NCBI RefSeq assembly: GCF_022045235.1
Contig: NW_027266297.1
Span: forward strand, 10,230,001 to 10,294,000
Direction of reading: 5' to 3'
DNA: 64,000 nucleotides
Origin: Haliotis cracherodii
Taxonomy: Eukaryota
The position numbers were made by a program, and so were the translations under genes. Below, in pieces: positions 46,310 through 49,005 of this stretch; the first letter of the stretch is position 1, and each line of letters starts with the position of its first letter. The notes under the pieces are model-generated. The model was not told the DNA's origin and did no database searches. It worked only from the letters and a program-made list of their open reading frames with translations.

Positions 46310-49005
46310 ATGGCATTCCTTACAGTAGCTATTCTATCTGTCATAGCTCACCTGGCCTTTGGTCAAGGTATGGGTCAAATGGCAAACGCTGCACTTGGCT
46401 TTGGTAATGCTGGATCGTCTTGGGGTCAAGCAGGAGCCGGCTTGGGTCAGGCAGGAGCATCGTGGGGTCAAGCGGGAGCTGGCTTTGGTCAGGCAGGAGC
46501 CGGCTTGGGTCAGGCAGGAGCCGGCTTGGGTCAGGCAGGAGCATCGTGGGGTCAAGCGGGAGCTGGCTTTGGTCAGGCAGGAGCCGGCTTGGGTCAGGCA
46601 GGAGCCGGTATTGGTCAAGCAGGAGCATCGTGGGGTCAAGCAGGAGCTGGCTTGGGTCAGGCAGGATTGGGTTTTGGTCAGGCAGGATTGGGTTTGGGTC
46701 TACCCAGACTTGGTTTTGGTCGACCAGGAGCAGGATGGGGACAAATAGGAGGAGTACTGGGCCAGAACACCATCAATCCTGTCTTCAGTAAGTGCATGCA
46801 TACATTTATTTTTATTTCATACATTTTAAGGGAAAGATATTCTTCTGTAAATTATATAATGCATATGAACTTAACGTATTGAACAAACGGAACGATAATG
46901 CAATGTAATTGGACCACATATTTCAAGTGAATCTAACTACTGTAGGCAAGGTACAGACCAAACGAATGTGGAACAAAGGCAAAGCAGTGTCTGTTTGATG
47001 TTTTGTAACTTTAAGCATATTGTTTAACACTGTTTTCATTATCTTTGCCCTGTCTTCAGACACTACCATCACCTGTACATTCAGCGCTACAGGGATCACG
47101 GGGTCCTTGACTCTGAGGAGGAGTCAACCAAGCTGGGGAGGATGGGGTGTAAGTTGTTTCTATTCATTCATCAGAATCTTTTATTCAATCTGATCCATTC
47201 ATATGTGGGGGCACGGGGGGCCCAGTTGTCTAAGGTGCAGCGATTCTCTGTGCAGAGTTGCGTCCCTTGATTGTGGGTGCGAATCCCGGTTCGCCACGAT
47301 TATGTTTCTAGGTTTGTCAGCACCGTACCCGTGCTCGTGGGTTTCACCAAAGTGGTAAACGTCTGAGACCTGCATCACTTCGGGCTTTCCTCCCACATTA
47401 AGCTGACACGCCGTGATATAACTGTAATACTGTTAAAAGCGGCGTTAAACCTAACTCACTCACTCACTCACTCCATTCATGTGTTATCAACGAGAGTGAG
47501 GGCCGTGGTAACCTAATGGCTAAAGCGTTATACAGACACAGTAACATTTAGACCAGTCAGACCGAAGAGAATTTATGAAGGTTAGCTACATCGGTTACTT
47601 GATCACTTGAATACTGAACAAAAGCTTCTCTGTGGGGTCAGGGTTAGGGTCAGAGTCAAGGGAGGCTTGTCATCTTAGGTGCCACGATTCTCTGCACAGT
47701 TGACTCCCCTTGTCGTGCTAGAATCCGATGCTCGTGAGTTCGAATCCCTGATTGCCATGAATACTATTAAACTTTGTCAGCAACATTCCCGTGCTCGTTG
47801 GTTTCACCAAAATGGTTTCGCCTGTTTCACCAAGACATTATAGAAAATGTCAGAATATATCAGATCGTGTATATATCCCATCATCAAATGGGAATGACCA
47901 ACATGAAAACCTTGTTATATTCCTTCTTAATTTTCTAGTGGGGTCAATCCCGCGGAGGTCTGACTGGATCTGCCGTTCTGCGAACATCCACTGTGTCAGG
48001 AACCTACAACCTCGTCATCACTGAGAGATCTCGTGTGGAGGCTGGCTGTACTGCTGATGGACTCGGACCTGTCCTTGGAAGGTAAAGATCTTTCTACATT
48101 TTGCGCGTCTCGGGAAACTTCTTCAATAACAAACCATTTTTTGAATTACTTAGTGAATACTGAATATACTGAATATGTTTATGAATTATACGGGAACACA
48201 TTATTTCAATGAAACCTATTTATTAAATCCAAATGCGTATTCACTCAATTTCCATACCACTGATACATAACAAAATATATTAGATCTAAAGTAAAATAAT
48301 TGTTCCTTCGCACTTTCAGCAACGTTTGGGGCCAACAGTGGGGTCAAGGTCTTGGTCAACAGTGGGGACAACCATGGGGACAACAGTGGGGACAAGGATG
48401 GGGTCAGTCATGGGGCACTGGAACGACCACCACCCCCGGAGTTGTCACCTCTGTCACCCTCACAACCAACCAGGAGACTGTCATTGACTTGGCCTCTGCC
48501 AACCTACCATTCAGGCAGATCGAGAGATACGGAGGACGTGGCATGGCTGTAAGTGCGAGACATATTTGTCATATGCATTGTGATTTCATAATATTTCATA
48601 TATTTTTATGAAATTCACATTTTTTACAAATTTGGGCCTCAACCAAATCTCATATTTACCCTTTAAACCTGAAATAAACGTATTTGACATTTAGGAAAGC
48701 TATTTGCAAATGTGTAACTTAACAAATTAGAATTAGGCTTCATCTTCTATTTTTTATGTTTAAATTATCTTTCCATACCCTTGACAGCCTGAAAAGGGAT
48801 ACTATTCTATGTTTCTAAGAGTTACCGTAATCAAAGCGCCATAATCATTCAAAAACAAGCAAATGACAGAGCTTTCTTCTGTTTGCAGCTGTGCACATCC
48901 TTGACCACTGGCCCTGATGGACGTCAAGTGTGTGTGGAGCCTATCCTGGCCTGCTGCAAGTTGGGATTCGACAATCAGGACGCTGTCACCCCGGCAGCCC
49001 CTTAA
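46310..49005 (+). CDS. G4: secreted (GQAGAGx)13-repeat protein with a degenerate SOD-like domain, about 351 aa. Exons 46310-46787, 47060-47148, 47939-48081, 48320-48548, 48889-49005
   Basis: GT..AG introns with phases 1/0/2/0, 1056-nt open CDS. Signal peptide MAFLTVAILSVIAHLAFG|Q. Six conserved Cys. Differences from G5 are almost all synonymous. Confidence 0.9.
47207..47471 (+). mobile_element. tRNA-derived SINE (family B) in G4 intron 2. Other copies at about 3959-4196 (-), 27005-27250 (-), 32856-33056 (-)
   Basis: A-box GGCCCAGTTGTCTAAGG, B-box GGTGCGAATCCC, (CACT)n tail, TSD TCCATTCATRTGT at 47194-47206 and 47472-47484; empty site in G5. Confidence 0.9.

Follow-up and report, generated by a model that had tools for sequence, protein, structure and literature searches.

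The abalone Haliotis cracherodii carries, at positions 10,230,001-10,294,000 of contig NW_027266297.1 (assembly GCF_022045235.1, forward strand), a stretch of 64,000 nt, here called the window, in which gene models based on splice signals give five related genes, G1-G5. One of them, G4, encodes a protein of 351 aa with a Trp-Gly-Gln repeat, and our analysis indicates that this protein is very probably a pseudoenzyme derived from superoxide dismutase (SOD) that carries the repeat in its loop IV. Structural self-assembly is the function that we favor, with moderate confidence and by analogy to other proteins. G4 is laid out as follows, residue numbers and loop names being those of SOD1:

46310..46787, plus strand: exon 1, with a signal-peptide-like start and a Gly/Ala/Gln-rich repeat tail with a period of 7 aa
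46787>47060: joint of exons 1 and 2, with contig evidence from public runs
47060..47148, plus strand: exon 2, with strands 1-2, a Cys of the extracellular-SOD type and the start of the SWGGWG|WGQ patch
47939..48081, plus strand: exon 3, coding for strands 3-4 (V/T in place of His46/His48) and, at 48047-48049, for the conserved disulfide Cys
48320..48548, plus strand: exon 4, with the repeat loop, strands 5-6, the Greek-key loop and the strand-7 GRG motif
48324..48416, plus strand: the repeat, eight [W/L]-G-Q-x units in 31 codons, at the position of the zinc subloop of SOD loop IV
48889..49005, plus strand: exon 5, with a Cys at the His120 position, a short loop VII, the strand-8 CC and the stop

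Among contigs from public runs, those of run X1 bridge each of the four G4 introns with the predicted GT..AG joints, and those of run X2 bridge three. The run contigs are 88-99% alike, and the RNA status of the runs is a guess, none of those listed being on record as RNA. Spliced contigs reach a depth of thousands in X1-X3 and of about 6 in X7, a weak hint at strong, sample-specific expression that we keep as a hint because contig depth is a poor measure. One X2 contig joins exon 3 to a shorter repeat (48081-48375 of the window), reflecting either a length variant or a collapse of the assembly graph.

The structural framework is an AlphaFold2 (AF2) model built on P0005, a relative 93% identical to G4 in exon 4, from 78 sequences. 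The model has a mean predicted local distance difference test score (pLDDT) of 78.9, with 116 of the 222 residues at 90 or above, and its strands (residues 33-40, 43-51, 68-76, 81-88, 149-155, 159-164, 182-186 and 203-208) follow each other in the same order as in SOD. All Foldseek matches listed, ranks 1-50, were chains of the Cu/Zn-SOD family, with probabilities of 0.99-1.00. Comparison with 48,161 chains by VIA-align returned SOD folds in all of the top 14 places (Z 8.9-12.3), the next row having a Z of 6.0; the best were SOD1 (Z 12.3, root mean square deviation (rmsd) 3.7, 137 aligned residues) and SOD3 (2jlp; Z 11.8, rmsd 3.8, 141 aligned). The domain is predicted to be an eight-stranded Cu/Zn-SOD Greek-key barrel, as the preliminary description of this DNA had proposed. 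The model also bears out its placing of the repeat, which would follow the disulfide Cys and connect strands 4 and 5, where loop IV has its zinc subloop, a mapping derived from strand order and profile alignment. The second aromatic patch that it had noted, SWGGWG|WGQ, spans the exon 2/3 junction and corresponds to the strand 2-3 loop.

Conserved motifs point to the same fold. The alignment comprised 92 sequences, namely 88 from databases together with G1, G3, G4 and G5; six hits had been excluded beforehand (P0060, P0079 and P0093 as unrelated; P0078, P0082 and P0092 as short fragments). In the register set by the conserved Cys, V stands at His46 and T at His48, and the VTQYGRxxDGC motif of relatives aligns to SOD HVHQYGDLSDGC. 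Two further pairs are GRGMAL-C in the family and GRSLVI-H in SOD, and ILACCKLG and RLACCVIG, respectively. The equivalents of Cys57 and Cys146 are present in 84 and 91 of the 92 sequences, and the strand-7 GR motif is kept as well (G114 in 91, R115 in 70), as are the strand-1 Cys typical of extracellular SOD (70) and the strand-8 CC (80).

The gene layout resembles that of extracellular SOD. The four family introns, with phases 1, 0, 2 and 0, lie at the strand positions found in five abalone extracellular SOD genes, where the phase-1 intron is located 4-6 codons before the strand-1 Cys and the others follow after strand 2 (phase 0), at the end of loop IV (phase 2) and in strand 7 (phase 0). 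The intron pattern of cytosolic SOD1 differs from both. In the SOD genes the phase-2 intron stands 22 codons after the Cys so that the end of exon 3 codes for the zinc loop, a layout retained by G13 and G14, two family genes downstream of the window, whose intron 3 falls no more than one codon from the SOD site. In G1, G3-G5, G11 and G12, by contrast, 11 codons separate the Cys from the intron, and exon 4 codes for the loop. As the loop and the SOD zinc loop are coded in different exons, the exon layout suggests that the zinc loop was probably lost and then refilled rather than converted. The notion that the zinc loop has become a repeat therefore holds for the site, but the repeat sequence is probably not a mutated zinc loop. 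The extracellular SOD genes form clusters at C2:35645000-35738400 and C56:8408000-8441000, the C56 members having long His/Asp-rich N-terminal parts; in one C2 copy loop VII is shortened and part of the metal ligands is missing (GFRAH, IRGA).

The residues that make SOD an enzyme are gone from the alignment. His occurs at none of columns 46, 48 and 120 in any of the 92 sequences, being replaced mainly by V (66), T (82) and C (88), respectively. The Asp83 column holds V or I in 77 sequences and the Arg143 column mostly I (56), V (11) or Y (10). The domains of G1, G3, G4 and G5 contain no His at all, loop included, so that the Zn ligands His63, His71 and His80 have no counterpart there, and electrostatic loop VII, flanked by two new Cys, is reduced to about 12 residues. 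Judged by these columns, the proteins would have no Cu/Zn ligands and hence would not be SOD enzymes. They also differ from Cu-only SODs and CSRPs (SOD-repeat proteins) in that the Cu histidines are missing and only one domain is present. Six Cys are conserved (in 70, 84, 88, 89, 91 and 80 of the sequences) and would pair into three disulfides, of which one is new and lies at the empty copper site; this pairing builds on the disulfide bonds that SOD3 presumably has, which a literature search did not confirm.

Several results weigh against an SOD origin. Pfam Sod_Cu (PF00080) matched none of 10 exons, 17 close relatives and 76 further proteins, HHalign against five abalone SODs gave a probability of about 10%, and the family profile scored abalone SODs no better than shuffled sequences. 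Similarly, no SOD was found when family profiles were compared with PDB sequences, and no Foldseek match had an E-value of 0.001 or below. An early, shallow AF2 model (17 sequences, pLDDT 46.6) did not separate the two folds, SOD being tied with the immunoglobulin (Ig)-like domains of GH2 enzymes; it was superseded by the 78-sequence model. Kinship with SOD is not shown by sequence alone; structure, motifs and gene layout agree on SOD. Two annotations point the same way: an Atlas feature search returned Sod_Cu clusters at 0.87, which we take as a lead, and UniRef lists a member from Lottia as 'Superoxide dismutase copper/zinc binding domain-containing protein'. Pfam matches to a FlgD Tudor-like domain (E about 1e-3, below the cut-off) were taken as chance, and GNFDPF of G1 was not counted as the GHFNP of SOD since the family register places His63 earlier, at the I/V of LGxI/V.

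The G4 repeat is an array with a period of four residues in which W or L recurs at each fourth position, eight times, and which Tandem Repeats Finder detects at periods of 12/24 nt. Loop IV of G4 consists of 27% Gly and 23% Gln, has seven W and carries no charge; the ten Trp of the domain are located in two surface loops. In the AF2 model of P0005 the pLDDT of the loop IV region falls to 45-56 between strands 4 and 5. Loop IV thus combines features of prion-like or coacervating sequences, namely predicted disorder, low charge, richness in Gly and Gln and spaced aromatics. The loop alone comprises just 31-44 aa, and the N-terminal Gly/Ala/Gln tail, with 127-141 aa (125-148 aa for the Gly-rich tail), is the larger low-complexity part. 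That the loop is expandable is supported by 15 abalone proteins, which have 4-13 units of the W/L/F-G-Q type. Repeat length changes between abalone species, and the four-residue register is kept in four of them.

Length differences among the paralogues had also been put forward, and all five loop sequences quoted for them were found in the window. The splice-signal models reproduce the exon 4 lengths of 148, 157, 217, 229 and 229 nt for G1-G5, but G2 is a pseudogene. The other four genes have intact five-exon reading frames:

4874..8064, plus strand: G1, 340 aa, exons 4874-5372, 5969-6057, 6624-6766, 7333-7480 (exon 4) and 7921-8064
25485..28734, plus strand: G2, pseudogene, exon 4 at 27565-27721
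36934..41326, minus strand: G3, 330 aa, exons 41326-40897, 40658-40573, 38555-38413, 37938-37722 (exon 4) and 37050-36934
37934-37854, minus strand: W/F-G-Q loop of G3, whose orthologue is P0001
54404..56570, plus strand: G5, 337 aa, exons 54404-54839, 55112-55200, 55576-55718, 55917-56145 (exon 4) and 56454-56570
55921-56013, plus strand: repeat of G5

In G2 no signal peptide was found, the GT donor is absent at the homologous exon 2 end, and a stop interrupts exon 3 once about 20 homologous codons have been read, its remainder not being found. On these grounds G2 is a fossil that stands outside a working length series; an intact counterpart exists in another abalone (P0020). In four runs G2 has little cover and, among the joints listed, no exon-exon joint, which is not evidence by itself. 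Loop IV of G1 is short, with a Cys-to-Gly span of 25 aa, the same as in SOD. The G5 model equals database protein P0002, labeled an uncharacterized Haliotis protein by its source, letter for letter.

Comparison of G4 with G5 confirmed the earlier count of seven synonymous and no replacement changes in the 31 repeat codons (17.3 synonymous and 65.7 nonsynonymous sites; Fisher p ~5e-6). The selection deduced from it is real in the sense that the repeat is purified, but it is not confined to the repeat: outside it the two genes differ by 11 synonymous and 2 replacement changes, indicating that the whole domain is conserved. Over the seven genomic copies of the G4/G5 type the ratio of nonsynonymous to synonymous differences (pN/pS), calculated from 21 pairs that are not independent, amounts to 0.12 for the repeat, compared with 0.17-0.29 elsewhere in the domain. 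Three replacements occur within the repeat, G>R in three copies and Q>P together with W>L in one, and seven of its eight W/L positions are W in most copies, with Trp codons offering no synonymous escape. Exon 2 is identical in G4 and G5, and at silent sites exon 4 of G4 is nearer to that of the downstream copies G6-G10 than to that of G5. Exon 4 thus looks like a mosaic among copies, suggestive of gene conversion, and the G4/G5 pair is therefore not a clean clock.

The window covers part of a cluster of 14 genes in ~135 kb, and with 12 further loci the genome contains about 26. G6-G10 are five more copies with a 229-nt exon 4, all intact, on the minus strand and 306-341 aa long, and G11-G14 are divergent plus-strand genes with tails of GGGAM repeats, Pro/Asn/Phe-rich stretches and Gly/Met at the C-terminus. 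An intronless, intact member of 376 aa on C10, probably a retrogene, has its own W/G/S/N loop IV and tail repeats of the GVGTPGF type. Eight of the remaining matches lie on C9 within a 52-kb array and are likely amplified intronless family genes. Outside the window the loci are:

C34:10297641-10369730: G6-G14, nine family genes downstream of the window
L025:4931-6058, on C10: the intronless 376-aa member
C9:25558671-25610331, C9:17030829, C10:25965818 and C67:47889108: eleven more matches with open frames of 324-504 aa

Has-GRBP was rejected as a member of the cluster, as even the best sites for its three published primers within 353 kb carry 4-5 mismatches.

When 1.84 billion representatives were searched with a profile, 78 hits were obtained, of which 30 were looked up, 20 of them with names, and 46 were not. 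All 20 named hits are from gastropods (Haliotis, Gigantopelta, Lottia, Littorina, Batillaria, Nucella, Babylonia, Lymnaea, Physella and Plakobranchus), the family going by automatic names that mislead (spidroin-like, fibroin-like, PE-PGRS, RNA helicase-like); a word-based search with G1 exon 3 returned no relatives. The Cys-to-Gly span of loop IV ranges from 20 to 108 aa (10 in one fragment) with a median of 51, SOD having 25, and it exceeds 40 in 54 of 87 members. Long loops contain a median of 27% Gly, accompanied by Tyr, Phe, Met, His or Asp. At least three Trp occur in 19 of the 54, 18 of these being from abalone. The Trp-type loop is specific to abalone, and the W-G-Q loop, present there as described, is one lineage's version of a socket that varies throughout the family. 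The strand 2-3 loop is longer than 30 residues in 19 of 67 members. On a FastTree phylogeny with weak deep nodes long and short loop states switch 8-10 times, which suggests repeated loop expansion. A hydrophobic N-terminus is found in 68 of 84 full-length members, and the proteins are likely secreted, the signal peptide being judged by hydrophobicity alone.

These observations can be combined into a model whose order of events is conjectural. In early gastropods an extracellular SOD gene would have been duplicated and would have lost its Cu/Zn ligands and electrostatic loop, while a new Cys pair at the His120 site, together with two pairs of the extracellular-SOD type, would hold the metal-free barrel together. 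At the level of sequence, three parts have become insertion sockets, namely loop IV, the loop between strands 2 and 3 and the N-terminal tail, and they are refilled with Gly-rich low-complexity sequence whose sticker residues differ by lineage. In abalone, loop IV contains uncharged [W/L]GQx units with an aromatic residue or Leu at every fourth position. After secretion the Trp/Leu stickers, together with the tail, would drive condensation and subsequent hardening of an organic matrix, in analogy to squid beak proteins, whose Gly/aromatic repeats drive coacervation (PMC9999432, on GHGLY and suckerins). A more specific version, in which the family is a gastropod-wide structural one from extracellular SOD, its metal-free barrel stapled by three disulfides and its three interchangeable low-complexity sockets (tail, strand 2-3 loop, zinc-loop site) tuned in each lineage with Trp, Tyr, Met or His stickers, and constitutes a main protein block of a snail-specific unmineralized material (such as radula/jaw cuticle, operculum or periostracum), is offered tentatively, and we would sooner expect parts of it to fail than all of it to hold.

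As to the material, the mineral shell is less likely than an unmineralized part such as radula or jaw cuticle, periostracum or an epidermal secretion because the family was not found in the shell-proteome files searched. Three Lottia members are absent from 12 such files in which control identifiers were found (PMC3374290; PMC4094399), and files 1-24 of the 27 on H. laevigata shell contain no family motifs (PMC6003135). No link to the family appeared in supplements on Lymnaea mantle (PMC6007483) and limpet adhesive mucus (two files, PMC7333891) or in texts on limpet radula (PMC9263180), lophotrochozoan proteomes (PMC13425148) and silk-like proteins (PMC4944945).

Self-assembly as the function has to be set against a number of findings that speak in the other direction. 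Shell, the best-studied material, did not yield the family in the proteomes searched, whose files may be cut, and we found no experiment or expression atlas that links the family to any material. Loops are short in 33 of 87 members (~38%), indicating that a long sticker loop is not required for family function. Moreover, the repeat has the same length in all seven G4/G5-type copies of the genome, and one copy has lost a Trp of the repeat through its two replacements.

The proteins might instead be binding proteins whose Trp loop and strand 2-3 Trp patch stack on chitin, other polysaccharides or microbial surfaces in mucus, making them cross-linkers or immune effectors. The confinement of the ten Trp of the G4 domain to two surface loops would suit this role, and inactive bivalve homologues of extracellular SOD have reportedly been linked to immunity (PMC9118643). 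Tandem gene expansion suits defense genes as well. Chitin-binding modules use rigid planar Trp arrays, however, so that the predicted disorder of the loop counts against chitin binding. Sticker identity also varies freely in the family (Tyr, Phe, Met, His), and the copies are homogenized and purified, unlike immune receptors, which tend to diversify. We regard a binding function as unlikely.

Less likely still is that loop IV is tolerated filler, expanded by slippage and kept soluble and Gly-rich by selection, with the function residing in the barrel or the N-terminal tail. The 20-108 aa range of loop lengths, the switching of loop states on the weakly supported tree and the solved barrel 6flh, a shortened-loop SOD1 variant, speak for this explanation. 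Against it, pN/pS in the repeat is below that of the barrel exons (with the caveat that the pairs are not independent), the four-residue register is conserved in four abalone species, and most copies retain W at seven of eight positions even though Trp has no synonymous codon. A metal-binding or redox role like that of Cu-only SODs or the one proposed for cavortin/dominin, with the repeat binding copper like the PrP octarepeat, agrees with the predicted fold, with a weak, non-significant Pfam Prion_octapep match (E 0.25-0.33, score 11-12, cut-off 32 bits), with His-rich loops in some gastropod members and with the 1-2 His in the repeat of some abalone orthologues, but is very improbable given the His-free domains of G1, G3, G4 and G5, the V, T and C at the Cu-ligand columns and the I/V/Y that dominate the Arg143 column.

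The window has several features besides these genes:

21847-22672 and 23231-24056: 826-nt direct repeat, 99.6% identical, flanking an N run at 23091-23230, possibly an overlap in the assembly or else a duplication of very recent date
59784-61559: tandem array of a 21-nt unit (83 copies); both strands have open frames of 200-583 codons, those of the plus strand being Ser/Thr/Asp-rich
9335-10563, 11610-12653, 12911-13312, 15318-16082, 16800-17234 and 30128-30577: decayed mobile-element-like frames between G1 and G3, reverse-transcriptase-like or transposase-like by eye
47268-47469, 27005-27249 and 25680-25803: intronic short interspersed repeats with an (ACTC)n end, to which RNA-like runs contribute thousands of matching contigs; abundant elements resembling short interspersed nuclear elements

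An enzyme barrel appears to have been turned into a carrier for low-complexity arms, its old metal loop having become a slot that is repeatedly refilled. The family is large, reaches from limpets to pond snails and is obscured by its names. Should a snail biomaterial indeed be built from it, a missing component of that material would have been identified, along with a set of naturally occurring sticker chemistries that share a single rigid scaffold. Molluscan pseudo-SODs as such are already known since inactive homologues of extracellular SOD, cavortin and dominin, occur in oysters. New are the total loss of ligands, the divergence past Pfam detection, the low-complexity sockets including the zinc-loop site and the gastropod-wide expansion; our literature search, which did not cover subscription journals, found no description of the family.

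Among the closest known systems is extracellular SOD of the SOD3 type, as encoded by the abalone C2 and C56 genes. The family shares with it the predicted barrel, a signal peptide and N-terminal extension in exon 1, intron phases 1, 0, 2 and 0, the strand-1 Cys and the strand-8 CC. It differs in having neither Cu/Zn ligands nor the catalytic Arg, in its low-complexity loop IV and in escaping Pfam. Cavortin and dominin are likewise secreted molluscan SOD derivatives and, according to PMC9118643 and PMC12217663, are without SOD activity; they are described as bivalve plasma proteins that are linked to metal transport and immunity and still score as SOD domains. Going by these descriptions, the family is set apart from them by its gastropod distribution (20 of 20 named hits), the absence of a Pfam match and the repeat loops. 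With Cu-only SODs and CSRPs it has in common that the zinc ligands and most of the electrostatic loop are gone (PMC12217663), and, as in the abalone CSRP domain, the spacing from Cys to His63 is two residues longer than in SOD1. CSRPs, however, keep their Cu histidines and have four domains, and the abalone CSRP is not scored by the family profile. The squid beak His-rich proteins and suckerins, too, form multigene families of secreted proteins that combine Gly-rich repeats with aromatic stickers, and they self-assemble into unmineralized molluscan material (PMC9999432). They are not homologous to our proteins, lack a globular, enzyme-derived core and use His/Tyr stickers, whereas in the family the repeats hang on a disulfide-rich predicted barrel and use Trp and Gln. 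The octarepeat of PrP has the motif PHGGGWGQ. The G4 repeat resembles it in having a WGQ triplet within a flexible Gly-rich repeat and is distinguished from it by a period of four instead of eight, the lack of His in G4 and G5 and the non-significant Pfam match. By descent, we place the family in the extracellular branch of the SOD superfamily, as neither an SOD enzyme nor a Cu-only SOD.

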